Source: Halomicrobium mukohataei DSM 12286 (GTDB taxonomy: Archaea > Halobacteriota > Halobacteria > Halobacteriales > Haloarculaceae). From it: DNA of 32,000 nucleotides. Positions 4,710 through 31,208 of the stretch are shown piece after piece (within the stretch, counting starts at the first letter, position 1; each line of letters begins with the position of its first letter). The stretch lies in NCBI RefSeq assembly GCF_000023965.1, contig NC_013202.1:3078488-3110487 (forward strand). Direction: 5' to 3'. The translations under genes and the position numbers were made by a program. The notes below the pieces were generated by a model. The model ran no database searches, was not told where the DNA came from, and saw nothing but the letters and a program-made list of their open reading frames with translations.

Positions 4710-5081
4710 TCACGCGTACTGATCGTAGAAGTAGAGCCCGACCGCGACGAGCAGCGCGAACGAGCCGACGGTGTCGATCGAGCGCATCTGCGGGACGAGC
4801 TCGAACCCAGCGAGACCCTGATAGGCGATCGACAGCCCGGCGATGCCGAGTGTCGCCACCAGCGCGACCGCGACGGGCTCCGTCTCGCGGGCGCGACTGA
4901 TCCGCCGAGTGCCGACGCCACAGGCCAGTAACACGAGCACGCCGATGAGGAGGTCCGAGAGCGGCCCGGCGTAGGGATTCGTCGTCGAGAGTTCCGTGAC
5001 GAACAGCGCCACGTACACCAGCAGCGCACCGACGACGATCTGTCGCTGGCGCTGTGAGCGGATCGCGAAGATGTCTGTCAT
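4710..5081 (-). CDS. small integral membrane protein (about 4 TM, 123 aa)
   Basis: ATG at 5081 gives MTDIFAIRSQRQRQIVVGALLVYVALFV.... Only the C-terminal 123 aa of listed ORF 4710..5447 look like real protein. The upstream part is Arg/Thr-rich shadow sequence. Confidence 0.6.
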   Translation of the reverse strand: MTDIFAIRSQRQRQIVVGALLVYVALFVTELSTTNPYAGPLSDLLIGVLVLLACGVGTRRISRARETEPVAVALVATLGIAGLSIAYQGLAGFELVPQMRSIDTVGSFALLVAVGLYFYDQYA

Positions 5082-5229
5082 CGTCGGGCAATGGACAGGG
5101 GGAAAGATAACAGTGACGAGCACGAGGCGGTGCCAGCCGGCGACGTTCCGGACACCGGCGTCTCGCTGGTCGACGGCCCGACGGGACCGCCGTCGCGCTC
5201 GATCGGGACAGAACGTAACGTATACCAGA

Positions 5230-5889
5230 GTGGCACCGACAGTGGCGTCTGTGCCCTCCAACACAGACAGCGACGGTCCGCGAGACGTAGCCGCCGTCGT
5301 GCGTCGATACCGACGGCTCGAACGACCGATCAGCGCCGGCATCGCCGTCCTCGTCGGACTCGTCGCGGCCGTCGCGATCATCACGCTCCCGCTGGTGGTC
5401 GGCCTCGCGGTCGCCCTCGCCGTGTTCGTCGCCGTCCGCGTCCCCATCTTCGAGACCGGCGGGACGACGACGCTGTCGACCCAGCAGCGTCCCGACGAGG
5501 TGCGTGCGGCCTTCGAGAGTGCCAGCCCGCCGCCGCTGGTCTTCCAGTGGGGACTGGCCGACGAGGTCGAACAGACAGACGGAGGCTGGTCCTACGAGAT
5601 CTCGTATCTCCTGGGACTGCGGTCGGTCCGACTGCACGTCGAGACCCACTCCGGCGACGACGCCGACCTCGAACTGGTGGTCACCGTCGGCGACCAGTCG
5701 TGGGGGACCTACCGCGTCGACATCGAGGCCCGCGACGACGAGACGATCGTCGTGATCGACACGACCTCGGATCGCAGATTCGGCCTCCGACGGCTGCCAC
5801 AGTGGTTCGTGGGCCAGCGATACCGGGTGGCGGCGCTGTCCGCACAGGGCTACACCGTCGTCGAGCAGGACGCGCGACTGACGCTCTAG
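5230..5889 (+). CDS. hypothetical membrane-anchored protein (2 TM plus soluble beta-rich domain); start uncertain
   Basis: In-frame GTG candidates lie at 5230, 5242 and 5251. The sequence is ...RRYRRLERPISAGIAVLVGLVAAVAIITLPLVVGLAVALAVFVAV, then an acidic domain (WSYEISYLLGLRSVRLHVETHSGDDADLELVVTVGDQSWGTYRVDIEARDDETIVVID). The upstream part of listed ORF 4996..5889 is shadow-like. Confidence 0.55.
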   Translation: MAPTVASVPSNTDSDGPRDVAAVVRRYRRLERPISAGIAVLVGLVAAVAIITLPLVVGLAVALAVFVAVRVPIFETGGTTTLSTQQRPDEVRAAFESASPPPLVFQWGLADEVEQTDGGWSYEISYLLGLRSVRLHVETHSGDDADLELVVTVGDQSWGTYRVDIEARDDETIVVIDTTSDRRFGLRRLPQWFVGQRYRVAALSAQGYTVVEQDARLTL

Positions 5890-6146
5890 CGCCGCTCGAC
5901 GACCCGGTCGATCGTCAGCCGGTCGTAGCCCAGCCCCTCGTGGACCGCGAGCTCCAAGGCGTTGACGAGATAGTGGGCGACGACGACCACGAGCAGGCTG
6001 TCGGTGAGGACGAACCCGGCCGCCAGCGCCAGACCGAGCCCGCCGGTGACGAGCATCCCGACTCGCCCCTGCGCGCCGTGAGCGGCACCGAAGACGACCG
6101 ACGAGGCTGCGTGCAGCCACGGCGAGAGAGAGAAGCCAGCGGTCAG
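5886..6146 (-). pseudogene. 3' fragment of a CPBP (CAAX/Abi) protease gene; truncated duplicate of 7739..8551
   Basis: It translates to ...LTAGFSLSPWLHAASSVVFGAAHGAQGRVGMLVTGGLGLALAAGFVLTDSLLVVVVAHYLVNALELAVHEGLGYDRLTIDRVVERR*. This matches the C-terminal ~80 aa of the full gene, but there is no N-terminal part and no start. The stop (5886-5888) overlaps the convergent gene's stop. Confidence 0.8.
5908..6105. repeat. direct repeat, copy A (partner 7755..7952)
   Basis: Hand alignment gives 198 bp with 5 mismatches and an offset of 1847 bp. Weaker similarity continues to about 6146 / 7993. Confidence 0.9.
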
Positions 6147-6493
6147 CGCGCTAGGCGAGACCGTGACCGTCGAGAGTGTTGGCGACCATACGGGCGGCGA
6201 GGTCAGCCAGCTTTACGTGAAAGACCCCGTCAGATCGAAGGTCACGCCGTCCCACAAGATCTGTGGGGAAGAGTGCGTGCGTTTCGACGACAGTGAGTCG
6301 ACGACCGTCAAGTTCGACCACACACCCACGATCGGGCAACCATCATGTGACCGGACGGCGAGAAGCACGTCGAGGCCGACAGCTTCGAACCGATCGTCGG
6401 CGAGGACACTGTCCGGCTCGAAGTCGCAGACAGAGTTATTTATAATCGATTATAGACGCTGTCTTTTTCTTCAAACACCGGAAATATATTCAC

Positions 6494-7321
6494 TCACAAC
6501 ACAGCCTCTGCCTCTTCTTGGTCTTCCGGATACGACCATGAATCCGCACCTGTATCAATATTCACCCCGAGCGGAGGATATGTAAGAACAACACTTTCTA
6601 AGAAATTAAGACCAGCATTCCCAAATACGCTCCAGGTGTGTTCGTATGTTCCTGCGATTCTGCCCGGTACCCTATCCGGGAAGTTTTGTTTGTTCAGAGT
6701 GAATTGGAGGCTTCCAACAATTTTCTCCGGATGCTGGAAGCTCAAATCATTATCACTTACTTTTATTCCAACTGCTGAGGCACCATCACTGCCGATAGGG
6801 TTGTCGTCAGGTTCTTCGGTTTTAATGTCTTCAACTTCTCCAGATGTGCTGTACCCCTGGCAACTATGTTCGATAGAATCACTACCATCTAATCCAAATT
6901 GGCTGTCCTCCCATCCAATAACTACTCCATCTTTGGGTGGTGCTCCGTCAATGTCTACTTTTTCTTGGAAAAACAAGCTCCAGCTTAGCATAACATCAAT
7001 CTTTTTGCCGAGATCATTTGCCATAAATTGGCAATTTGATTCGCTTGAGTCATAATGGCTGAAAAAGTCTTGAGTTTGGACCGAATCTGATTTTTCACCC
7101 GGCGAGAATTCGCCAGTTAGATCATTTGCTTTGAGTTTAAAGCCCGCATGCTCAGCGAGAGCATACGCTTCCTCAAAGTTTTGGTTAGCAACCGCCGTCT
7201 GGATTTGACTCCGAATATGCTTTTTATGTCTCCCACGACTCCCTTGTCCCGAGACAGTTGCGCTAATGAATGGTACTGATAGGGCGGTACCTGCGGTCTT
7301 TAGAATCGATCTTCGATCCAT
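6494..7321 (-). CDS. secreted orphan protein with twin-arginine (Tat) signal peptide
   Basis: ATG at 7321 gives MDRRSILKTAGTALSVPFISATVSGQG..., that is, RR plus a hydrophobic stretch plus A-x-V-S-G. The mature part is about 250 aa, acidic and beta-rich, with 2 Cys. Codons are AT-rich. No family recognised. Confidence 0.7.
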   Translation of the reverse strand: MDRRSILKTAGTALSVPFISATVSGQGSRGRHKKHIRSQIQTAVANQNFEEAYALAEHAGFKLKANDLTGEFSPGEKSDSVQTQDFFSHYDSSESNCQFMANDLGKKIDVMLSWSLFFQEKVDIDGAPPKDGVVIGWEDSQFGLDGSDSIEHSCQGYSTSGEVEDIKTEEPDDNPIGSDGASAVGIKVSDNDLSFQHPEKIVGSLQFTLNKQNFPDRVPGRIAGTYEHTWSVFGNAGLNFLESVVLTYPPLGVNIDTGADSWSYPEDQEEAEAVL

Positions 7322-7428
7322 ATTGCAGATTGACATTCGTATAGACATGTATTAAATGTATGTAATTAGGATATAAACTCCTATAGTATATCACAAAATA
7401 CTTATATGTGTTGATAATTATTTTAGGT

Positions 7429-7611
7429 ATGGATGAAATCAAAGGATACCTATCAATTATAACAATTCTCCTCGGAATTCAGACACTCAACGCGGTTTCT
7501 GATAACACGAGCAGTCTTTTTACTGAAGTTGGAGCAGCCCTCTCCATCTTAGTGATACTTCTTGTCCCAATTTTCCTCCTCGGAAAAGCAGTCCACTCGA
7601 AATTGCGATAA
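7429..7611 (+). CDS. 60-aa two-TM membrane protein (island family, copy 1)
   Basis: The sequence is MDEIKGYLSIITILLGIQTLNAVSDNTSSLFTEVGAALSILVILLVPIFLLGKAVHSKLR. It has the same length as 26659..26841 and 29/60 identical residues by hand alignment, with little DNA identity. This argues for real coding sequence under selection. It is divergent from 6494..7321. Confidence 0.65.
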   Translation: MDEIKGYLSIITILLGIQTLNAVSDNTSSLFTEVGAALSILVILLVPIFLLGKAVHSKLR

Positions 7612-7738
7612 TATGATCTTCTGAGGAAGTTAAGCATGTGGTAACAAAGTGGCTCGTCGCGCGGCGATACCGCAACGAGCCGTTGGCCGCATAGGGGTAC
7701 AGGGTCGTCGACCGAGAGACCGAGCTCTCGTTCGGAAG

Positions 7739-8551
7739 TTAGTCGATGAGCGTCTCGATCGTCAGCCGGTCGTAGCCCAGCCCCTCGTGGACCGCGAGCT
7801 CCAGGGCGTTGACGAGGTAGTGGGCGACGACGACCACGAGCAGGCTGTCGGTGAGGACGAACCCGGCCGCCAGCGCCAGACCGAGCCCGCCGGTGACGAG
7901 CATGCCGACGCGCCCCTGCGCGCCGTGGGCGGCACCGAAGACGACCGACGAGACGACCGCGAGCAGCCACGGCGAGACGGAGAATCCGGCCGCCATCGCG
8001 CCGATGGCAGCGCCACGGAAGACGACCTCCTCGACGACGGCGACGGTCGGCAGCGCGACGCCGAGCAACAGCACCCACCCACCCAGTGAGTCGGGGGCGA
8101 GCAGTTCGCGGACGGCCTCGTCGTAGCCCGCACCGGTGGCGTCGGCGACTGCACCCGCGGCTTCGTTGGCCAGCCAGAGGGCGACGCCGAAGCCGATCCC
8201 GACGGCGACGCCGGGGAGCCCACGGGCGAGCGCGGTCTCGGGGATCCCGAGCGCCCACGGCGGGATCGAGAAGTACACCGCGGCCCCGACGACGACCGCG
8301 CCGAACAGCCCCTGGGTCACGACGACGTTGGCGAGCAAGGCACCGGGCGACAGCCGCGCCCGCGGGTCCGCTACCGGCCGCTCGAAGCGCGGCACGACCG
8401 GGTCGGTCGGTCGCGGATCGCGTGGCGAGGGCTCCCTGAACCGGACTGGGTCGTCGTCGCCGCTCAGGGCAGACTGGGACGCTCTCGCGAGTGCGAGAAG
8501 CAAGAACAGAGAGAGGGCGAGCAGGCCGGCGAAGGCGGCCCACCGCGCCAC
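7739..8551 (-). CDS. abi: CPBP family intramembrane glutamic endopeptidase (CAAX protease / Abi)
   Basis: 270 aa with multiple TM helices. Motifs present are EEVVFRGA (EExxxR), FGAAHG (FxxxH) and HYLVNALE (HxxxN). The GTG start lies 4 nt after the lonB stop on the same strand. Confidence 0.85.
   Translation of the reverse strand: MARWAAFAGLLALSLFLLLALARASQSALSGDDDPVRFREPSPRDPRPTDPVVPRFERPVADPRARLSPGALLANVVVTQGLFGAVVVGAAVYFSIPPWALGIPETALARGLPGVAVGIGFGVALWLANEAAGAVADATGAGYDEAVRELLAPDSLGGWVLLLGVALPTVAVVEEVVFRGAAIGAMAAGFSVSPWLLAVVSSVVFGAAHGAQGRVGMLVTGGLGLALAAGFVLTDSLLVVVVAHYLVNALELAVHEGLGYDRLTIETLID
7755..7952. repeat. direct repeat, copy B (inside the intact CPBP gene)
   Basis: See 5908..6105. 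Confidence 0.9.
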
Positions 8552-8555
8552 GGTT

Positions 8556-10637
8556 CTACTGCGGGCTGGGTGAGCCGCTCTGCTGGCCCACTTCGCGTTC
8601 GAGCGCTTTGCCGGTGATGGACTTGAGCCGGTCGACCAGCGAGTCCTTCTCGGGCTCGCCGGCCAGGGCCACTTCCAGCACCTCGGAGATGTGCGAGACC
8701 GGGACGATCTCGATCATCTCCTCGTACTCCTCTTCGATCATCACGTCCTGGGTGTTTGCCTCGGGGATGATGACCGTATCGAGCCCGGACTTGGCCGCGG
8801 CCTCGATCTTGTGGGTCACGCCGCCGACGGGCAACACGTCGCCCCGCACCGACAGCGAGCCGGTCATCGCGAGGTTCTGCTCGATCGGAACGTTCTCCAG
8901 CGCGGAGATGACCGCCGTCGCGACCGTGATCGAGGCGGAGTCGCCGTCGACACCGCCCTCGCCGGCCTGAACGAACTGGATGTGAACGTCCTTCTCGGAG
9001 ATGTCCTCGTCCGAGAACTTCTTGATGATCGCCGAGACGTTCTGGACTGCCTCCTCGGCCATCTCCTTGAGCTGGCCGGTGGCGATCACCTGACCGGGAC
9101 CCTGCGAGGGCGTGACCTCCGCCATGACCGGGAGGACGATCCCGCTGTCCTCGCCCATCACGGCCAGACCGTTGACGCGGCCGACCACGTCGCCCTCGTT
9201 GACGGTCAGTTCGTAGTCCTTGCGGCGTTCGATGTAGTCGTCTGCGAGCTGTTGCTCGATGGAGCGACTCCGGCCTTTGGCCTGGAGCACGTCCTCGCGA
9301 GTGGTCACGTCCTGATCCTCCGCGCGGGCGATGTCGCCCGCGACGCGGACCAGTCCGCCCAGTTCGCGCAGTTTCAGGGTCAAGTGCCCTTTGCGGCCCG
9401 CGCGGCGGCGGGCTTCGAGGATGATCTCCTCGACGGCCTCGCGGTCGAAGTGGGGGAGTCGCCCGTCGTTCTCGACTTCCTGTGCGATGAAGCGGGTGAG
9501 CTTCCGGCGCATCTCCGGGGTGTCCTCGATGGTGTCGTCCATGTACACCTCGTAGCCGTACCCCTTGATCCGGGAGCGCAGCGCGGGGTGCATGTTCTCC
9601 ATGGCGTCGAGGTTCCCCGCCGCGATCATGATGAAATCACAGGGGACGGGCTCGGTCTGGACCATCGCGCCCGAGGAGCGCTCGGACTGGCCAGTGATGG
9701 AGAACTCGCCCTCCTGGATCGCGGTCATGAGTTTCTGCTGGCTGCGGATGTCCAGCGTGTTGATCTCGTCGACGAACAGGACGCCCTTGTTGGCCTTGTG
9801 GATCGCGCCGGCCTCGACGCGGTCGTGGCTGGGCGTCTCCATCCCACCGGACTGGAACGGGTCGTGGCGAACGTCGCCCAGCAGCGCACCGGCGTGGGCA
9901 CCGGTCGCGTCCTCGAAGGGCGCGGTGGTCTGGTTCGCGCGGTTGACCAGCAGGTTCGGGATCATCGAGTCGTTGCCACGCGAGCCATAGCGGAAGGCCA
10001 GGTAGATGACACCGGCCGCGAGGATCCCCAGCAGGACCGACCCCTGGATGATCAGCGCGTAACCGATGATGATGGCGATGATGATCCACATCAGGAAGGT
10101 CCGCATCTGGTTTCGCTTGCGGGCCTCCTCCTTGTGGGCGTCGACGATCTGTTCGCCCTTCCCGGCGGGGACGGTTCGAACCTTCGGCTCGTTTCCGTCG
10201 TCCGGGTTGTGGTAGACCAGAACGTCCTGTAGTTCCTCTTTCGGGAGCAGTTGGCTCATCGCTTTGGCCAGCATCGACTTGCCCGTCCCGGGCGAGCCGA
10301 TCATCATCACGTGACGGCGCTGTTTGGCTGCCTTTTTGATGACGTCACGGGCGTGGTCCTGCCCGATGACCTGATCGACGAGTCGGTCGGGGACTTCGAT
10401 GTCGCTGGTCGACTCGATGCCGAGCCCACCGAGGAGCCCGTCTTCGTCGTCGAGGGACGCGCCGCTCTCGACTTCGACCTCACTGCCGAGGTCGTCGAGG
10501 CCGCCACCTTCGGCCCCGCCACTCTCCACAGTGTCACCAGCGTCGTCGGCCGCGCTGTGGTCGTCGTCTTCGGGCGGCGTCCCGGTCACCTCCCGCTCGT
10601 CGTCGGGAGTGTCGTCGATCTCGGTATTGTCGCTCAT
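8556..10637 (-). CDS. lonB: archaeal membrane-bound ATP-dependent protease LonB
   Basis: ATG at 10637 (MSDNTEIDD...). It has Walker A GSPGTGKS, two TM helices inserted in the AAA+ domain (MRTFLMWIIIAIIIGYALIIQGSVLLGILAAGVIYLAF), and a Lon protease domain with GDSASI (catalytic Ser) and the downstream GGV.HK block. The listed 10757 start adds non-protein-like sequence. Confidence 0.9.
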   Translation of the reverse strand: MSDNTEIDDTPDDEREVTGTPPEDDDHSAADDAGDTVESGGAEGGGLDDLGSEVEVESGASLDDEDGLLGGLGIESTSDIEVPDRLVDQVIGQDHARDVIKKAAKQRRHVMMIGSPGTGKSMLAKAMSQLLPKEELQDVLVYHNPDDGNEPKVRTVPAGKGEQIVDAHKEEARKRNQMRTFLMWIIIAIIIGYALIIQGSVLLGILAAGVIYLAFRYGSRGNDSMIPNLLVNRANQTTAPFEDATGAHAGALLGDVRHDPFQSGGMETPSHDRVEAGAIHKANKGVLFVDEINTLDIRSQQKLMTAIQEGEFSITGQSERSSGAMVQTEPVPCDFIMIAAGNLDAMENMHPALRSRIKGYGYEVYMDDTIEDTPEMRRKLTRFIAQEVENDGRLPHFDREAVEEIILEARRRAGRKGHLTLKLRELGGLVRVAGDIARAEDQDVTTREDVLQAKGRSRSIEQQLADDYIERRKDYELTVNEGDVVGRVNGLAVMGEDSGIVLPVMAEVTPSQGPGQVIATGQLKEMAEEAVQNVSAIIKKFSDEDISEKDVHIQFVQAGEGGVDGDSASITVATAVISALENVPIEQNLAMTGSLSVRGDVLPVGGVTHKIEAAAKSGLDTVIIPEANTQDVMIEEEYEEMIEIVPVSHISEVLEVALAGEPEKDSLVDRLKSITGKALEREVGQQSGSPSPQ

Positions 10638-12396: not shown

Positions 12397-14820
12397 ATGC
12401 AACACAGAAGAGACGTGCTTGCGAGTCTGGGCATCGCACTGTCGACTGCACTTGCCGGCTGTTCGGAAGACACCGACGGCGAGACCGACGGCGAGAGCAG
12501 CGACGAAGCGACCGAGACGGACCGGACACAGTCGAGTGGCCCCGAACTCGCGGCTTCGGCCCAGCTCAACGTCTACCGCGCCCGGCTCTTCGACGCCGTC
12601 GCGCTCGGTCGTGCCGGCCAGACCGCCGCGGGAGCGTCCGTCGCCCAGTCGATCTTCCAGCGGTTCGAGAACGCGACCGGGGAGTACGGCGCTCACGAGA
12701 CGCTGGAACGGACCAGCGAGTCGGCCTACGAGGGATTCGAGAGCGCGCTCGGGGAACTCCGGTCGACGCTCGAAGACGGCGACACCGACGCCGCCGCCGA
12801 GGCGGCGACGACGGCCAGCGACCAGCTCCAGATCGCCCAGCAGGCCCTGATCGGCAACGACGCCACGCGCGCACTCGACGCGCTCCTCCTCGGGAGCCGC
12901 GCCGCCAACACCCGCGTACTGGGCGAGGCTGGTCACTTCGAGGCGGCGGCGACCGTGGCCACCGAAACGACCGAGCGGTTCGAAGACACGCTCGTCCACG
13001 GCGCACTCGAAAGCGCCGACGGGGACGCCTACGAGGACTTCGAGTCCGGACTGGCGTCGATCCAGCGCGCCGCCAGCGAGGGGGACGCCGAGGGCGTGAC
13101 CGACGCCGTCGCCGCGGCCCAGTCGGCGGCGGTGGCGGGTGCCTACGCGCTGGGAACCGAGTCGGTCGCCGGGACCGGTCACCTCGCAGCGATGCAGTCA
13201 GTGGGGTACGACGCCGCGGCACTCGCCGGTCTCGGCGGCCCGAGTGAGGCCCTCGCGCACGCGACGACGCTGACCACCTACCGGGCGCGGATCCGGGACG
13301 CGGCGTGGCTGGCCGACGCCGACGAGGGATCGACGGCGGGCACGGTCGTCGGGAACGTCTTCGCGGACTTCGAGGGTGCGCGTGCCCACGAAGCGCTGGA
13401 AGAAGCCGACCACGAGGCCTACGAGGGGTTCGAGAGCGGCCTGGAGTCGCTCCAGTCGGCCGTCGAGAGCGGCGAAGGCGTCGACGACGCCCTCGCCACG
13501 GTGGACGAACACCTCCGGACCGGCGTCGCGACGCTGGCCGGCGACCACGCCCCGGTCCTGCAGGCCGGCTTCTTCCGGGCGCGTCTCGCCGACGCACGCG
13601 AACGCTACGAGCGAGGTGCGCCCTCGGTCGCCGCGTCGATCACCCAGGAGCTGTTCGAGCGGTTCGAGGCCGACGAGCTCGGGTTCCACGAGACGCTCGA
13701 AGAGGCCAGCGAGGACCTCTACCACCGCTTCGAGGAGGAGCACCTGGCCGGCCTGATCGAGGCCTACGAGAACGACGACAGCGAGGCGGTCACCACCCAC
13801 CACGAGGGCGCGCTCGACGCGCTCCTGGAGTTCGAGGCCACCACCGGGGACAGCGTCGCGAGCGCGGCCGAGACCGCGTACTTCGTCGCTCGCGGATTCG
13901 ACAGCGCTACCGTCGCCACGCTGGGCGACAGCGAGCGCGCGGCGACGATTCCACGGGCCGCCTTCGAGCACTTCGAGAGCGGTGCAGCGGGCTACCACGA
14001 GGCACTGGAACACGCCGACCACGAGACCTACGAGACGTTCGAGTCCGATCTGGGCGCGATCCGGTCGACCGCGGAGTCGGGCGGCGACGTGCGCAGTGCC
14101 GTCCAGACGTTCGTGAGCACCGCGATCGACGGCATCTACGCCATCGTCGGCGCTGCCGGCGGCTCGAACGGCGCGGCCGCTGCCGCGATCGTACAGGACG
14201 TGTACGCCACCTTCGAGGAGGCCCGCGTCCACGAGGCGCTGGAAGAAGCCGACCACGAGGCCTACGAAGGATTCGAGGCGGCGCTGGAAGCGTACGCGGG
14301 CGGACTGGACGGCGAGGGCGACGTGCCCGTCGGTCGCCTCGCAGACGCGACGCTGCGCGCTCAGTTCGCCGTCGCGGGTGCGCTCGACGACGCTCCCGTC
14401 GGCCAGGACGGCGAGGGGAGCGCCGAGACGGAAGAGACCGAATCGTCGCTGGAAGGGGGCCCGAACGTCGTCGACGGCGTCCCGGACGACGCCGACCACG
14501 TCGTCTCGATGCAGGCAGTGGCCTTCGAGCCGGCCGAGTTGACCGTCTCGGTCGGCGATACGGTCGCCTTCGAGCACGTCGCCGGTGAAGCCCACAACGT
14601 GGTGGCCCGAGAGGAAGAGCTACCGGCGGACGCGAGCTACTGGGCCTCCGGCGACTTCGACTCCGAGACGGCCGCAGTCGAGGGGTGGGACAACGGACAG
14701 GGTGCCGTCCAGTCGGGCCAGTCCTACGTCCACACCTTCGAAACGGCCGGCGAACACCCCTACTACTGTGTCCCACACGAGATGGCGGGCATGGAAGGCA
14801 CGATCGTCGTCGAAGAGTAA
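12397..14820 (+). CDS. Tat lipoprotein with six helical H/E-rich repeats and a C-terminal halocyanin/plastocyanin-like cupredoxin domain
   Basis: ATG at 12397 gives MQHRRDVLASLGIALSTALAGC (twin-Arg plus lipobox LAGC). There are six ~110-125-aa repeats, each with F..FE......HE.LE......YE.FE..L, for example HEALEEADHEAYEGFESGL. The C-terminal domain has type-1 Cu ligands (AGEAHNV ... YYCVPHEMAGM). The listed start at 12217 adds Arg/Pro-rich non-coding-like sequence. Confidence 0.85.
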   Translation: MQHRRDVLASLGIALSTALAGCSEDTDGETDGESSDEATETDRTQSSGPELAASAQLNVYRARLFDAVALGRAGQTAAGASVAQSIFQRFENATGEYGAHETLERTSESAYEGFESALGELRSTLEDGDTDAAAEAATTASDQLQIAQQALIGNDATRALDALLLGSRAANTRVLGEAGHFEAAATVATETTERFEDTLVHGALESADGDAYEDFESGLASIQRAASEGDAEGVTDAVAAAQSAAVAGAYALGTESVAGTGHLAAMQSVGYDAAALAGLGGPSEALAHATTLTTYRARIRDAAWLADADEGSTAGTVVGNVFADFEGARAHEALEEADHEAYEGFESGLESLQSAVESGEGVDDALATVDEHLRTGVATLAGDHAPVLQAGFFRARLADARERYERGAPSVAASITQELFERFEADELGFHETLEEASEDLYHRFEEEHLAGLIEAYENDDSEAVTTHHEGALDALLEFEATTGDSVASAAETAYFVARGFDSATVATLGDSERAATIPRAAFEHFESGAAGYHEALEHADHETYETFESDLGAIRSTAESGGDVRSAVQTFVSTAIDGIYAIVGAAGGSNGAAAAAIVQDVYATFEEARVHEALEEADHEAYEGFEAALEAYAGGLDGEGDVPVGRLADATLRAQFAVAGALDDAPVGQDGEGSAETEETESSLEGGPNVVDGVPDDADHVVSMQAVAFEPAELTVSVGDTVAFEHVAGEAHNVVAREEELPADASYWASGDFDSETAAVEGWDNGQGAVQSGQSYVHTFETAGEHPYYCVPHEMAGMEGTIVVEE

Positions 14821-19706: not shown

Positions 19707-19790
19707 CGTACGGTTTCTTGTAGTTGCTTACCGGTGATCGTCGCCACGGAGTAGACGATCACCGGTAAATCGCTACAATAATCCGTATCC
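19707..19790 (+). ncRNA. conserved ~84-nt hairpin element, copy 1 (candidate 3'-UTR element or small RNA)
   Basis: Blocks are CGTACGG (19707-13), N4, TTGTAGTTGC, a perfect 15-bp stem 19728-19742 / 19754-19768 with an 11-nt loop, N13, and TCCGTATC (19782-19789). It starts 4 nt after the stop of 19434..19703. Confidence 0.55.
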
Positions 19791-19812
19791 GTCGCTCCTC
19801 CCTGGGGTGGGT

Positions 19813-25345: not shown

Positions 25346-26407
25346 ATGAGCCCCAGACTGAACGGTCGCCGCGGTCTCGTCCTCCTCCTGGTCGCCGCCG
25401 TCGCCGTCGCTGGCTCGGCGGCAGTCACGGGCGCGTTCGCCACGTTCCAGCAGCCGACGGGCGACGAGGTGCTCGACGGGGTCGAACAGCGGTACGAGAG
25501 CGCCGACTCGATCACGAGCACGGCCACCGTGACCGTCGAAAACGAGAGCGCGTCGACGACGGCCACCGTGGAACTGGCCGCAGACGACGAGAATCGGACC
25601 CGGATGGTCGTCGAGCGAAACGGCGAGACGGTGCGGGCGGGCTCGAACGGCACCGTCGCGTGGTACGTCGGTCCGAACCGATCGGCCGCCTGGTCGGTCG
25701 ACTCGCTCGAAGGCGAGGCCGGCGAGCAGTGGACCGGAGCCGAGGGCGAGTACGGCGAGACGAGCGAGCGCCTCGCACCCGACGGGACGCCCGCACTGAA
25801 CGCCTCGAACGCCTCGGCGACGGTCGTCGGGACGCCGACGGTCGACGACACCAGCACCTACGAGGTCGAACTCACGCACCCAGAGGCCGACGGATCGACG
25901 ACGCTGTGGGTCGCCCAAGACGACTACCGCGTCGTCCGGGCGGTCGCCACCGACGGCACGAACCGCACGGTCGTGGCCGTCGAGTCGACGGTGTTCGACG
26001 TGTCGATCCACGACAGCACCTTCGACCCGCCGACGGATCGCGTCGCGCTGACGACGGTCGATCGCTACGACAGCTTCGACGCCGCGCAATCGGCGACGGA
26101 CCTGTCGCTGCCGACCCTCGACGCGAGCTTCACCGAGGCGACGGTGACGGTCCGACAGGGCGAGACCATCGTCGGCCAGCGCTACGTCGACGACGGGGCG
26201 AACGTGACCCTCCTCTCGACGACCGCCGACGATCGCCTCGATCGACTGACCGAGAACGCCACCGAGCGAACGGCCGACGGCCGGACGGTCCACGTGACCA
26301 CGGACGAGGACCGCGCCATCGCGGTCTGGCAGAACGACGGCGTGACGACCGCGGTCGTCGTCGAGGGATCGAGCGACAGAGCGGTCGAAGTTGCGGGCGA
26401 GCTGTAA
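25346..26407 (+). CDS. secreted LolA-like / lipoprotein-sorting-fold protein (two-domain)
   Basis: It has an N-terminal signal/anchor (RRGLVLLLVAAVAVAGSAAV). Beta-rich domains follow the pattern Y.SADSITSTATVTVEN...RMVVERNGETVRAGSNGTVAWYVGPN, typical of LolA-like proteins. It is divergent from the MacB-type ABC pair. The assignment is by pattern only. Confidence 0.55.
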   Translation: MSPRLNGRRGLVLLLVAAVAVAGSAAVTGAFATFQQPTGDEVLDGVEQRYESADSITSTATVTVENESASTTATVELAADDENRTRMVVERNGETVRAGSNGTVAWYVGPNRSAAWSVDSLEGEAGEQWTGAEGEYGETSERLAPDGTPALNASNASATVVGTPTVDDTSTYEVELTHPEADGSTTLWVAQDDYRVVRAVATDGTNRTVVAVESTVFDVSIHDSTFDPPTDRVALTTVDRYDSFDAAQSATDLSLPTLDASFTEATVTVRQGETIVGQRYVDDGANVTLLSTTADDRLDRLTENATERTADGRTVHVTTDEDRAIAVWQNDGVTTAVVVEGSSDRAVEVAGEL

Positions 26408-26658
26408 TCTGGGAAGCGACCCCGAGCAGGAGCAGCGTCACACATCGTCCAACAGGCTCGTCGCACTCATCTTTCGAATTCTTGCTGCCTTCGTCCGTGA
26501 GATCAGAGGACATGTCGCTTCAATCGGTGTGTAACGATTCACCTGCTCCGACCACGAGCACACCGTTGTGCCGCGTGATCAGTTGTCCGCAATATCGAGA
26601 CTGCTAATTCCGATCCATGTTGCTACACAGTTATGCCGATATTTGATGTGGATGTGAG

Positions 26659-26841
26659 TTATCCGACCATAGAATAGACGATGCGACCAACGAGATACAG
26701 TGGGAGAATCAGAAGAACCAAAATGGCGATTGCGCTCCCTATGTCCTGAAACAGGCCACTTGTACTGTCTGAGACGATCTCAAGCGTAATTATGGAAAGT
26801 AAAACCGTAATGATTGCAAGGTATGAATTTTCTGACTCCAT
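26659..26841 (-). CDS. 60-aa two-TM membrane protein (island family, copy 2)
   Basis: The sequence is MESENSYLAIITVLLSIITLEIVSDSTSGLFQDIGSAIAILVLLILPLYLVGRIVYSMVG. It is a paralogue of 7429..7611 and shares the loop motif VSD(N/S)TS(S/G)LF. Confidence 0.65.
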   Translation of the reverse strand: MESENSYLAIITVLLSIITLEIVSDSTSGLFQDIGSAIAILVLLILPLYLVGRIVYSMVG

Positions 26842-27343
26842 GTGTATAGAAACCCAGTACAGATACAGATCATATTTCTTTCGGAACAAATAAGATCAAC
26901 GGAAAGATCTGCTGGGTGTGGGTCAGACACTGTTAGAGCGCGAGGAAGACAGCCAATGCGGGTTATACTGCCAGCTGTACGTCTGTGAAGAATTTCGCGA
27001 TCCCGTGATCGCGAATCTCTTGCAATAGTTACAGCCGGCAGTAGTAGCAGGAGGTTGTCAGATAAATTGAGGCGGTTCAGGATACGACATTGAGATTTAG
27101 CTAACTATACTACGAGATAATAGTCTCTGGTACAGAGAGTTATAAAACAGCTCACAGTGGGATTAATCTCAGGACTATATAGTATGAATTGGCCACTCGG
27201 TCCGTGTGCATATTTACCGTCACTATTCTGATAAACCTGATTGTACCCACAGAAATGAGCAAGATACAGGACGTGGATCTTGGAGAAAAGTGAACGGTAG
27301 GTACAGGGGAAAGTGATACCGAGATAGTCCATTCCCAAATGTA

Positions 27344-28390
27344 CTATTTGTGACGGCTTGCAAAGGGAGACTCATCAAAGCTGATGAAATCTAATTTTTC
27401 AGAACTACCTTCAATATCTGAACCGAATTCTTTCTGTAGATGTCGGATTGCATCTAAACATTCCTCATGTGCACTTCTAACTGTTTCTTTGTCCGGCAAA
27501 TAGCCTTCGTGTACCACTTTATTTCTAATTTCATAGAAATCATCATACCACTGGTCAAATCGGCAATAGTCCTCGAACTCGACTCCGGCCTTTGGATAAT
27601 GGTCGGTGACGATATTGTAGATAGCATAATACTGTCCAGAATCATCCTGAATGGATTCTCGAGCCTCTAATTCAGTATTTTCTGAAGATATTTTAGCAGC
27701 GACGAATGCGTTTTTTGCCCATGACTCAAACAGATTGAAGCTGAGAATGATAGCCGTTCTAAATTCACCCAGATCAACTTTATTTAATACATCTAGATGA
27801 AGTTGTAGATAGGTATTAGCAGACTCATTATTCTTAAGTGCTTCAGCCATTTGACGGGCTTTATTTTCAGTAAGTCCAGTTTTGGCACCTAACTCAAGAG
27901 GGCCTCCAGTTACAGAGCGGTTGCGAAAGCCACGCTCATCTGTTCGTATCCGAAACCTAATGATATCTTCAACTACAAGGGGGCGTATCCAATGATAACC
28001 AGTATTCTGTCGATAGTGTTGAAGAAATTTATTGAGAGCCATTATAACTGATTTAATCGCACGTCCCTCACGGTCTTGCATACTGGAACCCATCATAGCG
28101 ACTGCTCCGGGTATCTCGTCCGGCCCACCTGCCGGAATGGATTTGTACACGTCATGATGAATGGTTCCCTGAACTTTCGAACGGGTCGCTTTCCCAAGCC
28201 GATCTCGCTTAACCGTTACTGTTCCTTCAATTCCGGAATCACCAGATGTTCGCTCAAAGCTTAATCCGAATGGGTGTCCAAAAACTTGCGGAAAAAACAT
28301 CGGGCCGTCATCGTCGGATTCAATTCCATCAGGTACCTCGATATGGTATGGAATTTCAAATCTGACCAAGACGTGTTGCATACGAGCCAT
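27344..28390 (-). CDS. orphan 348-aa protein: N-terminal unknown domain plus C-terminal HEPN-like helical domain (Rx4H)
   Basis: ATG at 28390 (MARMQHVLVRFEIPY...). The C-terminal ~150 aa are helical (TYLQLHLDVLNKVDLGEFRTAIILSFNLFESWAKNAF ... WYDDFYEIRNKVVHEGYLPDKETVRSAHEECLDAIRHL) and contain RNKVVH (27509-27526), which fits the HEPN Rx4-6H motif with the common R-N start. Codons are AT-rich. Confidence 0.65.
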   Translation of the reverse strand: MARMQHVLVRFEIPYHIEVPDGIESDDDGPMFFPQVFGHPFGLSFERTSGDSGIEGTVTVKRDRLGKATRSKVQGTIHHDVYKSIPAGGPDEIPGAVAMMGSSMQDREGRAIKSVIMALNKFLQHYRQNTGYHWIRPLVVEDIIRFRIRTDERGFRNRSVTGGPLELGAKTGLTENKARQMAEALKNNESANTYLQLHLDVLNKVDLGEFRTAIILSFNLFESWAKNAFVAAKISSENTELEARESIQDDSGQYYAIYNIVTDHYPKAGVEFEDYCRFDQWYDDFYEIRNKVVHEGYLPDKETVRSAHEECLDAIRHLQKEFGSDIEGSSEKLDFISFDESPFASRHK

Positions 28391-28653
28391 AACGATACTC
28401 AAGAACCCTTAATATTTCTCGCAGCTCTTCTATCTTCGAGTATATCGAACAGTCTACGTATTTACTGGTCGGATGGTCTTTTAGTTTTTCTTATCTAAAG
28501 AGGCCTATTCTACAAGGCCCAGACCCTGTATTAAATGATTAACTGGTATCACAACTGCTCTGTGACGCCCCTTTGATGTAACTGACACGCAGCCAACTCT
28601 ATTCTGTGTAGAATTCGGCAACGCTTACGGCCCCCGACCTGTTTTCCCGATGC

Positions 28654-29493
28654 ATGACAGACGAGGCGACGGCGTTCGTGCCCGGTCACGTGACGGGCTT
28701 TTTCACGACCGATCCGGCCGACGATCCGACGAAAGCGGGATCGCGCGGGGGCGGGCTCGCGTTGGCCGACGGCGTGACCGTCACCGTCGAGCGCAGCGAC
28801 GAGCGATCGGTGACGCTCGACGGCGTCGACATCGAGATCGAAGCCGTCGAGCGCGTGCTGGACGCGCTGCGAGCGACCGTCGCGGTGCGAGCGGAGACGC
28901 CGCTGCCGCTGGGCTCGGGCTTTGGCGTCTCGGGGGCGACCGCGCTTGGGGCGGCGCTGGGGACCAACGCCCTGCTGGAGCGGGGGCTCTCGGAGAACGA
29001 ACTGGTGACGATCGCACACGGCGCGGAGGTCCAGGCCGGGACCGGGCTGGGCGACGTGGTCGCGCAGGCCCGCGGCGGCGTCCCGCTGCGGCTCGAACCG
29101 GGCGGGCCACAGGACAACTACATCGACGCCATCCCGGCACGCGGCCGCGTCGAGTACCACGTCATCGGCGAACTCTCGACCGAAGCCATCCTCGACGGCG
29201 ACACCGCGGCACTGACCCGTGCCGGCGAGAAAGGGCTCTCCCGGGTCGTCAAGGAACCGACGACGGAGTCGTTCCTCCGGGCCTCGCGCCAGTTCGCCCG
29301 CGAGGCGGGGCTGCTGACCGACGACGTGCGGTCGGTGCTGGAAGACGTGGCGGCGGCCGACGGCGACGGCGCGATGGCGATGCTCGGAGAGACGGTCTTT
29401 ACCGTCGGCTCGGGGCTGACCGACGCGGGCTACGACGCGACGATCACCGAGATCCATCCCGGCGGTGCGACGGTGCTCGACTCGTCTGACTGA
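28654..29493 (+). CDS. pantoate kinase (archaeal CoA pathway, GHMP kinase superfamily)
   Basis: AFVPGHVTGFF at the N-terminus, the GHMP motif PLGSGFGVSGA, and GTGLGDV. About 280 aa, as in archaeal PoK (COG1829). Confidence 0.8.
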   Translation: MTDEATAFVPGHVTGFFTTDPADDPTKAGSRGGGLALADGVTVTVERSDERSVTLDGVDIEIEAVERVLDALRATVAVRAETPLPLGSGFGVSGATALGAALGTNALLERGLSENELVTIAHGAEVQAGTGLGDVVAQARGGVPLRLEPGGPQDNYIDAIPARGRVEYHVIGELSTEAILDGDTAALTRAGEKGLSRVVKEPTTESFLRASRQFAREAGLLTDDVRSVLEDVAAADGDGAMAMLGETVFTVGSGLTDAGYDATITEIHPGGATVLDSSD

Positions 29494-29574
29494 TACGGAC
29501 GGTCGTCGGAATGTACCGGTGAGCGTCTACCCCATGGCGACGCTCACCGGTAAGCAACTACAACGTTCCGTATG
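29492..29574 (-). ncRNA. conserved ~84-nt hairpin element, copy 2 (opposite orientation to copy 1)
   Basis: The minus strand reads CATACGG, N4, TTGTAGTTGC, a 14-bp perfect stem (29514-29527 / 29539-29552) with an 11-nt loop, N14, and TCCGTATC. It lies about 37 nt 3' of the MFS transporter stop in sense orientation. Confidence 0.55.
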
Positions 29575-29611: not shown

Positions 29612-31018
29612 CTATTCGCCCGAGTCGCCGACGGCGGCCGCGGGCGTCGACGAGACGTTGCTCCGGAGGTCCGCCTCGATCGCTTCCAGGGACCGCCCCT
29701 TCGTCTCGGGCACGAGGCGGTAGGTGAACACGAGCGCGACCAGGCTACAGAGTCCGAACAGCCAGAACGTCGAGGGCTGCCCGACGCTGGCGGTCAGGAC
29801 GGGGAAGGCCAGCGAGACCGCGAGGTTCGCGCCCCAGTTGGCGACGGTGACGAGCCCCATCGCGCTGCCACGAGTCGCCAGCGGGTAGATCTCGGAGATG
29901 AGTAGCCAGAAGACCGGGCCGAGCCCGATCGCGAAGAAGGCGACGAACAGCATCAGGCTGCCCGTCGCGATCCAGCCCAGCGCGCCGCCGAAGCCGGGCA
30001 GGTAGAAGACGACACCGAGGATGCCCAGCGTGACGACCATTCCGCCGACACCGACCAACAGGAGGACGCGTCGGCCGACCCGGTCGATCAGTGCGATGGC
30101 GACGACCGTCATGACGACGTTGATGACGCCGATCCCGACCGTCGCGAGGATCGACGTGACGCTGCCGAAGCCGGTCGATTCCAGAATGGTCGGGGCGTAG
30201 TAGATGACCGCGTTGATCCCGGTGATCTGCTGGAAGACGGCCAGCCCGAGGCCGACGATCAGCGCGGGGCGCATCCACGGCTGGAGCAGGTCGCGCAGGC
30301 CGGTGCCGGACTGCTTTTCGACGGTCGAGCGGATCTCCGCCAGCTCCTCCTCGACGCCTTCCTCACGGGTGCGTGCGAGGACGGCACGAGCCTCGTCCAC
30401 GCGGCCGTTTTCGAGGAGCCAGCGAGGGCTCTCGGGCATCTTGACCATCCCGATCGCGAGGACGACCGCCGGCACCATTCCGGCACCGAGCATCCACCGC
30501 CACGCCCCCGCGTCGGCGAAGGCGTAGTTGACGAAGTACGAGACGAGGATACCGACGGTGACCATCAGCTGGTTCAGCGAGGTCAACGCACCGCGGATCT
30601 TCGGCGGCGAGATCTCGGAGATGTACAGCGGGCCGACGATCGAGGCGAACCCGATCGCGACGCCGTCGATGAGCCGTCCGGCGACGAGGACCGGCACCGA
30701 CGGGGCGACGGCCATGGTGAGCGAGCCGACGAAGAACACTCCGGCACCGAGCAAGATGAGCCGGCGGCGGCCGATCCGGTCCGCGAGTCGTCCGCCGACG
30801 GCCGCGCCGAAGGCGGCTCCCGCCATCGCACCGCTGACGACGATCCCCTCGACGAGCGGGGACATCGTGAACGTGTCTTGGATGTAGAGGAACGCTCCGG
30901 AGATGATTCCAGTGTCGAACCCGAACAGGAGGCCGTTGAGCGCGGCGAGGGCGGCCGAGAGGTAGATGAACCGCCCCCCGTCGCCGTCCAGAACGCGCCG
31001 GAGTTGTGCTGTCGACAT
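29612..31018 (-). CDS. MFS sugar porter family transporter
   Basis: ATG at 31018 (MSTAQLRR...). It has 12 TM helices and the sugar-porter signatures GFDTGIISGA, GRLADRIGRR, PESPRWL and PETKGRSLE. Confidence 0.9.
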   Translation of the reverse strand: MSTAQLRRVLDGDGGRFIYLSAALAALNGLLFGFDTGIISGAFLYIQDTFTMSPLVEGIVVSGAMAGAAFGAAVGGRLADRIGRRRLILLGAGVFFVGSLTMAVAPSVPVLVAGRLIDGVAIGFASIVGPLYISEISPPKIRGALTSLNQLMVTVGILVSYFVNYAFADAGAWRWMLGAGMVPAVVLAIGMVKMPESPRWLLENGRVDEARAVLARTREEGVEEELAEIRSTVEKQSGTGLRDLLQPWMRPALIVGLGLAVFQQITGINAVIYYAPTILESTGFGSVTSILATVGIGVINVVMTVVAIALIDRVGRRVLLLVGVGGMVVTLGILGVVFYLPGFGGALGWIATGSLMLFVAFFAIGLGPVFWLLISEIYPLATRGSAMGLVTVANWGANLAVSLAFPVLTASVGQPSTFWLFGLCSLVALVFTYRLVPETKGRSLEAIEADLRSNVSSTPAAAVGDSGE

Positions 31019-31208
31019 GTGTGAATCCCACACGAGCGTTTACAACATCTATAAAGAAGGCTTGCGATTTATCATCAAGATACGATCATGAAATAGTAGA
31101 GATGACAGTGTAGTACTTCAGTAAAGCGGTTACCGGCTAAAAAGAGATGGTAAGAGATATGTAACGATGGAGCGATGGACTTTCGACGCTCGGCGGCGAC
31201 GTGTCTCC

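Follow-up and report, generated by a model that had tools for sequence, protein, structure and literature searches.

Hmuk_3218, a predicted HEPN ribonuclease of an unnamed family encoded in a low-GC island of Halomicrobium mukohataei

A low-GC island between two housekeeping genes carries Hmuk_3218

The innate immunity of haloarchaea beyond CRISPR and restriction-modification is poorly charted. Here we analyse a 32,000-nucleotide stretch of Halomicrobium mukohataei DSM 12286 (contig NC_013202.1, positions 3,078,488 to 3,110,487 of the forward strand; hereafter ‘the window’, with positions counted from its first letter) and, within it, the gene Hmuk_3218, which encodes a predicted HEPN-domain protein. 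The gene is located in a low-GC intergenic island (26408..28653), flanked on one side by the gene of a DUF2092 periplasmic protein (25346-26407), which we take to have a LolA-like fold, and on the other by a GHMP kinase gene (28654-29493), which fits pantoate kinase (PoK) because a PPS_PS gene is found nearby. The GC content, determined per 400-bp interval over 26401-28800, is 0.50, 0.43, 0.41, 0.41, 0.47 and 0.54, as compared to 0.67-0.73 on both flanks. A first-pass annotation of the window had described an AT-rich block wedged between a LolA-like gene and pantoate kinase, and both the compositional contrast (GC 0.41-0.50 against approximately 0.70) and the nature of the flanking genes are as described. 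As we argue below, the island is a composite of a resident small membrane-protein gene and an inserted HEPN cassette; judging by the list of open reading frames (ORFs), it offers no further credible ORF next to the HEPN gene. An Rfam search of the island returned no match, no tRNA gene was found within the 32-kb window, and a sigma-70 promoter and terminator scan was uninformative, the sigma-70 model being unsuited to archaea. The window contains a second low-GC stretch, island I (6401-7600), for which no DNA-level relatedness to the island under study, island II, was found.

The HEPN-family ORF (Hmuk_3218 / C7P2K6_HALMD / WP_126967057.1) spans 27344..28381 on the minus strand and encodes 345 aa when read from the ATG at 28381. 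Starting from the ATG at 28390, the ORF (27344..28390, minus) encodes the 348-aa form that is Hmuk_3218 / C7P2K6_HALMD, which is in turn nested in a 352-aa ORF with a TTG start. The upstream ATG at 28390 is out of frame in the closest homologous copy (locus L001, 82% identical), which makes 28381 probably the true start. The protein contains FYEIRNKVVHEGY and is 100% identical both to WP_126967057.1 and to the Halomicrobium protein cluster P0001; at least three genomes carry it intact and unchanged. The 348-aa ORF that the first-pass annotation had pointed out exists, with the RNKVVH motif at 27509-27526 as it reported. The numbers R293/H298 that it had given to the arginine and histidine fit the 352-aa TTG form: the same residues are R289/H294 in the 348-aa form and R286/H291 in the 345-aa NCBI protein. 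Unless stated otherwise, we use the numbering of the 348-aa frame.

The C-terminal domain is predicted to be a catalytically competent HEPN domain

The defining features of HEPN domains are an Rx4-6H motif, a polar residue (N, D or H) following the arginine, and an acidic residue on helix 2 that forms part of an Ex3[K/R] signature; the catalytic motif is located at the end of helix 3 or at the start of the loop connecting helices 3 and 4, and an insert separates helices 2 and 3 (PMC3710099). In Hmuk_3218 the candidate HEPN domain covers approximately residues 175-330 (27401..27868, minus), as delimited by a domain model, Foldseek and the Pfam matches of family members. It carries the Rx4H motif R-N-K-V-V-H (R289, N290 and H294; 27509..27526, minus) and the second signature E222-x3-K226 (27713..27727, minus).

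To gauge conservation we used an alignment of 119 divergent relatives with a mean column identity of just 10%. R289 and H294 are present, at a spacing of four, in 119/119 sequences and are the only invariant columns of the alignment; since they are invariant in relatives this divergent, the motif goes beyond chance. N290 is conserved in 110/119 relatives, with D or H taking its place in five more, and E222, located within the helix spanning residues 210-235, is found in 116/119, the remaining three having D. A lysine or arginine four residues after E222 is present in 55/119 relatives and is invariant within the close family of seven clusters, in which R289, K291, H294 and E295 are invariant as well. 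Both catalytic residues, the conservation of which the first-pass annotation had proposed to check, are thus fully retained.

The AlphaFold2 (AF2) model of residues 166-348, built from a 125-sequence alignment, is of high confidence (pLDDT 93.4, pTM 0.87). It predicts four core helices: helix 1 (193-206), helix 2 (210-235), helix 3 (278-295) and helix 4 (301-326). A helical insert (236-277) separates the E222-bearing helix 2 from helix 3, and the R289..H294 motif forms the C-terminal end of this penultimate core helix, followed by the loop 296-300 and the long final helix 301-326. With the motif at helix 3's end, and the insert between helices 2 and 3, the topology of the model agrees with the HEPN description in PMC3710099. 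When the domain model was searched against the PDB with Foldseek, the top four matches were all HEPN structures (2q00 chains A and B, 2hsb and 2jpu), with target-normalised TM-scores of 0.53-0.64, query-normalised TM-scores of 0.40-0.46 and probabilities of 0.33-0.72, although with E-values of 1.2-2.5 the matches are not significant; 1ufb and AbiV appeared further down the same list. Whole-chain Foldseek searches of the PDB and BFVD gave nothing significant, and the HEPN structures topped the list only with the domain-only model.

Profile searches of the relatives point in the same direction. A Pfam scan of the 119 members yielded 24 matches to six HEPN families (RiboL-PSP, 12; Apea, 7; Swt1, 2; AbiU2, HEPN and MAE_28990, one each), and no other family was recurrent. 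The matches are mostly weak: the best E-values are 1.4e-5 for RiboL-PSP (PF18735) and 9.6e-5 for Apea (PF18739), and the single member matching AbiU2 (PF18734) does so at 6.8e-9. PADLOC similarly returned weak matches of the relatives to generic HEPN components, namely the reverse transcriptase-associated HEPN (9) and Csx1/Csm6 (5). Hmuk_3218 itself stays below all thresholds: it scores 13.5 bits (E=0.069) against PF18735, the gathering threshold of which is 28.4 bits, and has no PADLOC, NCBIfam or PF18739/ApeA match.

The last result, together with the Foldseek E-values above 1, weighs against the HEPN assignment and in favour of some other helical bundle with a chance R-x4-H. A search of PDB sequences is no more favourable: with the single sequence it found nothing, and with the family profile only a marginal match to a CdiA tRNase (E=0.08). 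We nevertheless consider this explanation very improbable given that the arginine and histidine are invariant and the asparagine and glutamate nearly so in 119 sequences, that the motif is correctly placed in a model with a pLDDT of 93, and that the top structural matches and the recurrent profile matches are all HEPN. Judged by its sequence and model, the C-terminal domain is very probably what the first-pass annotation had suggested, a HEPN domain with the typical R-N start, predicted to be catalytically competent and belonging to a family for which no dedicated model exists.

The N-terminal domain matches no recognised family

The N-terminal part of the protein, approximately residues 4-165 (27896..28381, minus), is delimited by AF2 secondary structure and by conservation, and is predicted to adopt an alpha/beta fold with strands 7-13, 39-50 and 68-77, a long helix 107-130 and a hairpin 145-159. 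It has its own conserved motifs: P14, DRxG (approximately residues 63-66) and NxFxxxYR (N120, Y126 and R127). Across the 119 relatives P14 is present in 111, N120 in 115, Y126 in 109, and R or K at position 127 in 112. We found no match for this domain in Pfam, NCBIfam, the PDB sequences, or in Foldseek searches of the PDB and BFVD, which agrees, for approximately 165 residues, with the initial impression that this part of the protein resembles no recognisable family.

The HEPN gene is a low-GC, single-gene cassette

We compared the island with three homologue loci (L001-L003) by blastn. The DNA that the island has in common with L001, the closest homologue locus, covers only 27332..28426 (minus strand; 82.6% identity), that is, the ORF with approximately 36-45 bp upstream and 12 bp downstream, and we therefore regard this segment as a transferable single-gene cassette. 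The conserved upstream stretch holds the A/T-rich, TATA-like ATATTAAG, which we infer to be the promoter of the HEPN gene. The L001 copy of the gene is also lower in GC (0.41-0.48) than its neighbours. In two metagenomic contigs, L021 and L022, the small gene and PoK are adjacent to each other with no HEPN gene between them, and the synteny of the window with these contigs is lost precisely at 28653, to be regained within the small gene, at 26687-26825. The foreign composition noted in the first-pass annotation is thus backed by the GC contrast, by homology limited to the cassette and by a HEPN-free orthologous interval, and sequence comparison identifies the HEPN gene as a horizontally acquired, low-GC, single-gene cassette inserted between the small membrane-protein gene and PoK.

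The 0.5-kb spacer downstream of the HEPN gene contains a 78-nt imperfect palindrome (inverted repeat I1, 26966..27043) with a predicted RNA hairpin fold of -44.1 kcal/mol (z = -7.9). The palindrome occurs only once in the window and matched nothing in Rfam, and the metagenome contigs yielded no exact match either; a terminator, a recombination scar and the remnant of an element are all conceivable.

The neighbouring membrane-protein gene is a resident and not a partner of the HEPN gene

Approximately 0.5 kb downstream of the HEPN gene and on the same strand lies Hmuk_3216 (26659..26841, minus), which encodes, from its ATG, a 60-aa protein with two hydrophobic segments, a predicted two-transmembrane (TM) protein. 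As noted in the first-pass annotation, it has a relative in the other low-GC island: the product of 7429-7611(+) in island I is 51% identical (E=1e-19). The first-pass annotation had also linked the two genes of island II, as a candidate defence module made up of the HEPN effector and the small membrane protein. This link has not survived comparison with other loci. The Hmuk_3216 family is confined to Halomicrobium, and its other copies have no HEPN neighbour: the H. katesii copy occupies the island-I position, where Rce1-like and LonB genes adjoin it and no HEPN gene lies close by, and the closest relative, P0165 (73% identity), is located 225 bp from PoK in the metagenomic contigs L021-L024, again with no HEPN gene between. 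A tblastn search with the 60-aa protein found it in none of the other HEPN homologue loci. Because its orthologue adjoins PoK without a HEPN gene and because synteny resumes inside it, the small gene is best seen as a resident, naturally AT-rich gene, next to which, beside PoK, the HEPN gene was inserted.

The two genes do share a strand and the low-GC block, and in 6/14 contexts a TM-containing ORF follows the HEPN homologue, both of which speak for such a module. We considered whether downstream TM proteins form a functional class and rejected the idea, as these ORFs are not homologous to one another and are no more frequent than expected (p ~0.11). Moreover, the 0.5-kb spacer with its strong hairpin separates the two genes. 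Taken with the absence of the small gene from every other homologue locus, its restriction to Halomicrobium and the orthologue that abuts PoK, these observations leave the two-gene module largely refuted and barely credible; the 60-aa membrane protein seems to play no part in HEPN function.

In contig L022 the order is PoK, one small gene, a segment resembling 4712-6140 of the window, and Rce1/LonB. The window has two inverted small-gene paralogues (7429-7611(+) and 26659-26841(-)) located 19 kb apart, each of which keeps one of the L022 flanks. This arrangement points to a duplication plus an inversion or other rearrangement, with breakpoints at the small genes.

The family is patchily distributed and found in varied genomic contexts

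A word-indexed search of 5.8 billion proteins recovered only seven close clusters, 38-100% identical to the query (seven orthologue clusters show 38-81% identity to Hmuk_3218), and a repetition of the indexed search with the broad family alignment added a single one, P0113. The exhaustive profile search of 1.84 billion representatives yielded 340 relatives with E<=1e-3, of which 110 have E<=1e-10. The unnamed family comprises approximately 340 clusters at 50% identity, distributed patchily over haloarchaea and bacteria; approximately 27 best-scoring clusters are acid-rich and haloarchaeal-like, which the other clusters among the matches listed are not. Two phage protein families of no assigned function also match, phrog_37158 to Hmuk_3218 itself (4.5e-5) and phrog_28299 to other members. 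The family is not covered by any model of Pfam, NCBIfam or PADLOC, in agreement with the earlier statement that no named system fits. Literature searches by locus tags and accessions found no paper mentioning Hmuk_3218, and none of the HEPN literature that we found deals with this family.

Several relatives are encoded on mobile elements. Two haloarchaeal ones are located in elements with an associated integrase (L001, and L007, which also has MazE, DnaJ and AAA_16 genes), and two more are plasmid-borne (loci L026 and L027): one on an 80.7-kb plasmid of H. salinisoli, with ArdC-like and type IV secretion system-coupling genes, the other on plasmid 5 of Halalkalicoccus jeotgali (23.7 kb), which encodes a P4-type primase. 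In Halorubrum (L011) the relative is found beside a PD-(D/E)XK nuclease and Orc1/Cdc6. Defence neighbourhoods occur among the bacterial relatives. A Steroidobacteraceae metagenome-assembled genome (L014, 6943-12603) has a compact defence island of four consecutive genes, encoding, in this order, an OLD-family ATPase-TOPRIM nuclease, a DUF6602/NucC-like nuclease, the HEPN homologue and DRT4 (E=1e-205), and in L018 the relative directly adjoins the genes of a restriction-modification pair, a Bsp6I restriction enzyme and a methylase fused to LexA. In Lentibacillus (L015) the neighbour is a DUF4238 gene.

The low-GC composition is not peculiar to the window. On a 184-kb metagenomic haloarchaeal contig of approximately 0.70 GC (L031), the homologue is located in a 2.7-kb islet (7300-10000; GC 0.37-0.49) together with a winged helix-turn-helix (wHTH) gene and a non-homologous 218-aa ORF with a single TM segment, and a faint integrase-like gene adjoins the islet. 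The AT-rich state of the cassette in every GC-rich host (the window, L001 and L031) may reflect dedicated single-gene mobility or xenogeneic silencing. We looked for a conserved partner by all-against-all comparison of the neighbours and rejected the idea, as no gene is universal; the sole recurring neighbour is the wHTH gene, located upstream of the homologue in three related contexts (L007, L009/L010 and L031).

Comparison with known HEPN systems

With the HEPN superfamily at large, Hmuk_3218 shares the R-[N/D/H]-x3-H motif at the end of helix 3, the Ex3[K/R] of helix 2, the four-helix core with its insert and the occurrence in conflict systems (PMC3710099). It differs in that the family lies outside the existing models and has its own N-terminal alpha/beta domain without a fold match. 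The best-matching profiles, RiboL-PSP-HEPN (PF18735) and Apea-like HEPN (PF18739), recognise only 12 and 7 of the 119 members, and weakly. The architecture is similar to that of ApeA, described in a preprint (bioRxiv 10.64898/2026.03.20.713152) as a single-gene antiphage RNase: both are stand-alone proteins in which an N-terminal region, as yet uncharacterised, precedes a HEPN domain. The N-terminal domains, however, are not related, and Hmuk_3218 matches neither PF18739 nor the PADLOC ApeA model.

The lactococcal HEPN abortive infection (Abi) proteins – AbiU2, AbiV, AbiD/F and AbiJ – are similarly single-polypeptide HEPN effectors, in their case borne by plasmids or prophages and acting in abortive infection. 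One family member matches AbiU2, and AbiV is among the structural matches, if a weak one (TM 0.35-0.39). Hmuk_3218 itself matches none of their models, and its clade is haloarchaeal. AbiV itself has no canonical histidine and acts with a partner (PMC3710099). The minimal HEPN fold is shared with the HEPN-MNT (HepT/MntA) toxin-antitoxin (TA) systems, and the closest solved structures, 2q00, 2hsb and 1ufb, are small HEPN proteins of the HEPN-T type; Hmuk_3218, however, is approximately three times larger, has the extra N-terminal domain, and no MNT gene is found in the island or conserved at homologue loci. Finally, the AF0298-type HEPN proteins have an altered motif (PMC3710099), while that of Hmuk_3218 is the full RNxxxH. 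With the sequence signatures and predicted topology of the superfamily in place and each of the named families excluding it, we class this as a HEPN family that is new, as is its N-terminal domain. By analogy we propose that its mode of action resembles that of the single-protein HEPN Abi effectors ApeA, AbiU2, AbiJ, AbiD/F and AbiV.

Proposed function and alternative explanations

We favour, as the more probable explanation, that Hmuk_3218 is a stand-alone Abi-type conflict RNase that is carried by mobile elements and was left behind in the chromosome. The analogy with HEPN proteins that have an intact Rx4-6H motif suggests a metal-independent endoribonuclease, with the chemistry carried out by H294, R289, N290 and E222. 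As there is one HEPN domain per chain, the enzyme would have to act as an obligate homodimer that juxtaposes two Rx4H motifs. The N-terminal alpha/beta domain may hold off or gate the activity until a trigger is sensed, for example a virus or plasmid component, the trigger being purely conjectural. Once activated, the enzyme would cleave cellular and/or invader RNA (tRNA, rRNA or mRNA), and the ensuing growth arrest would abort the infection or exclude a competing mobile element. Bolder, and doubtful at present, is the possibility that Hmuk_3218 founds a new antiviral or anti-plasmid system, consisting of a single protein and common to haloarchaea and bacteria, in which the N-terminal domain with its P14, DRxG and NxFxxxYR motifs is a new sensor that directly recognises an invader component and licenses activation of the HEPN dimer.

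The defence role is suggested by guilt by association, from relatives that sit in a handful of mobile or defence contexts, and a number of observations weigh against it. The association with defence genes rests on approximately 3 of approximately 14 contexts, a small sample. Of the surroundings that the first-pass annotation had anticipated, the mobile or defence context applies to the plasmids, the integrase elements, L014, L018 and L011, but L012 (Nostoc), L013 (cyanobacterial), L016 (Herpetosiphon) and L035 have nothing defence-like nearby, and the window itself is neutral as well: we found no integrase and no other defence gene close to the HEPN gene there, and a repeat search of the window revealed no attachment (att)-like direct repeats flanking island II. 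Furthermore, the family was absent from an IMG/VR scan and from GenBank phages, and only 2/72,556 plasmids of PLSDB were hit, the same two haloarchaeal ones with three different queries. Lastly, the regulatory or sensor role of the N-terminal domain is presumed.

Plasmids and integrase-bearing elements are also where one would expect the toxin of a TA or addiction module, which would stabilise these elements to their own benefit rather than serve host immunity; the chromosomal copy would then be an orphaned toxin, with the antitoxin encoded elsewhere or by the small wHTH gene upstream of some homologues. HEPN toxins are a major class of TA toxins (PMC3710099), AbrB/MazE-type genes are located close by in L007 and L026, and the wHTH genes upstream in L007, L009/L010 and L031 are homologous to each other. 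However, no partner is conserved across contexts, the MazE-like genes are neither adjacent to nor co-oriented with the homologue, and no MNT-type partner was found in the island of the window or at the homologue loci. The window copy has no neighbouring ORF that could serve as an antitoxin and yet occurs intact and unchanged in at least three genomes; a toxin with nothing to neutralise it should be lost unless it inhibits itself, which counts against an orphan. We therefore consider a TA toxin unlikely, although it is the strongest competitor of a conflict RNase. The isolation of the cassette between core genes, in surroundings where we found neither an integrase nor an att site nor any further mobile or defence gene, could alternatively mean that the gene is a remnant: either domesticated, the RNase having been recruited for host RNA processing in the manner of HEPN RNases that have housekeeping roles in eukaryotes and archaea, for instance Las1 and Swt1 (PMC3710099), or decaying, an unexpressed hitch-hiker of a lost mobile element. 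This is less probable still, given that the ORF is intact with every catalytic residue kept, that the gene is sporadic and not core, with only seven close clusters among 5.8 billion proteins and varied contexts, and that the retained low GC argues against long residence.

Significance

The family has remained unnamed in Pfam, NCBIfam and PADLOC despite a clean catalytic signature, a confident domain model, approximately 340 clusters and a distribution over two domains of life. Being a single gene and compact (345 aa), Hmuk_3218 is genetically tractable and a good candidate for inclusion in defence-system catalogues, and we regard it as a clean candidate for a part in the innate immunity of haloarchaea, and one that lends itself to testing. 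Should the N-terminal domain prove to be a new sensor, this would be the first stand-alone HEPN abortive-infection system demonstrated in haloarchaea; should the protein be just another HEPN Abi effector or toxin, the gain would be incremental, as a further HEPN family would not surprise specialists. The locus also illustrates that an AT-rich island in a GC-rich haloarchaeal chromosome can combine AT-rich genes that are resident with insertions of single genes, and cautions against reading adjacency in such an island as an operon.

Other features of the window

Island I (6152-7644) is bracketed by a 354-bp imperfect direct repeat with 83.5% identity (5798-6151 and 7645-8001) that represents the 3' terminus of the gene for the Rce1-like CPBP protease, which suggests that the insertion duplicated its target or carried a copy of it, as integrative elements do. 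Apart from the Hmuk_3216 paralogue, the island encodes a protein of 284 aa that has a twin-arginine-like signal and matches no family. Beyond PoK, as seen from island II, a major facilitator superfamily (MFS) sugar-transporter gene (29612-31033, minus) separates PoK from PPS_PS, whereas in L021 the two coenzyme A (CoA)-pathway genes are adjacent; judging from this gene order, the neighbourhood has undergone a further local insertion or rearrangement here.

A palindromic element of approximately 76-80 bp at 19709-19787 (19709-19793) recurs as an inverted, 83%-identical copy at 29488-29563, immediately downstream of where PoK stops, and a further self-complementary stretch is found at 1006-1071. 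The three palindromes (19709-19793, 29488-29563 and 1006-1071) may be common terminators or a small repeated palindromic element. Finally, three mutually similar segments of approximately 90-110 bp (76-84% identity) are located within approximately 1 kb of each other, at 13355-13462, 13959-14071 and 14198-14288; they are also present in H. katesii (L025) and probably represent repeated domains of one gene.

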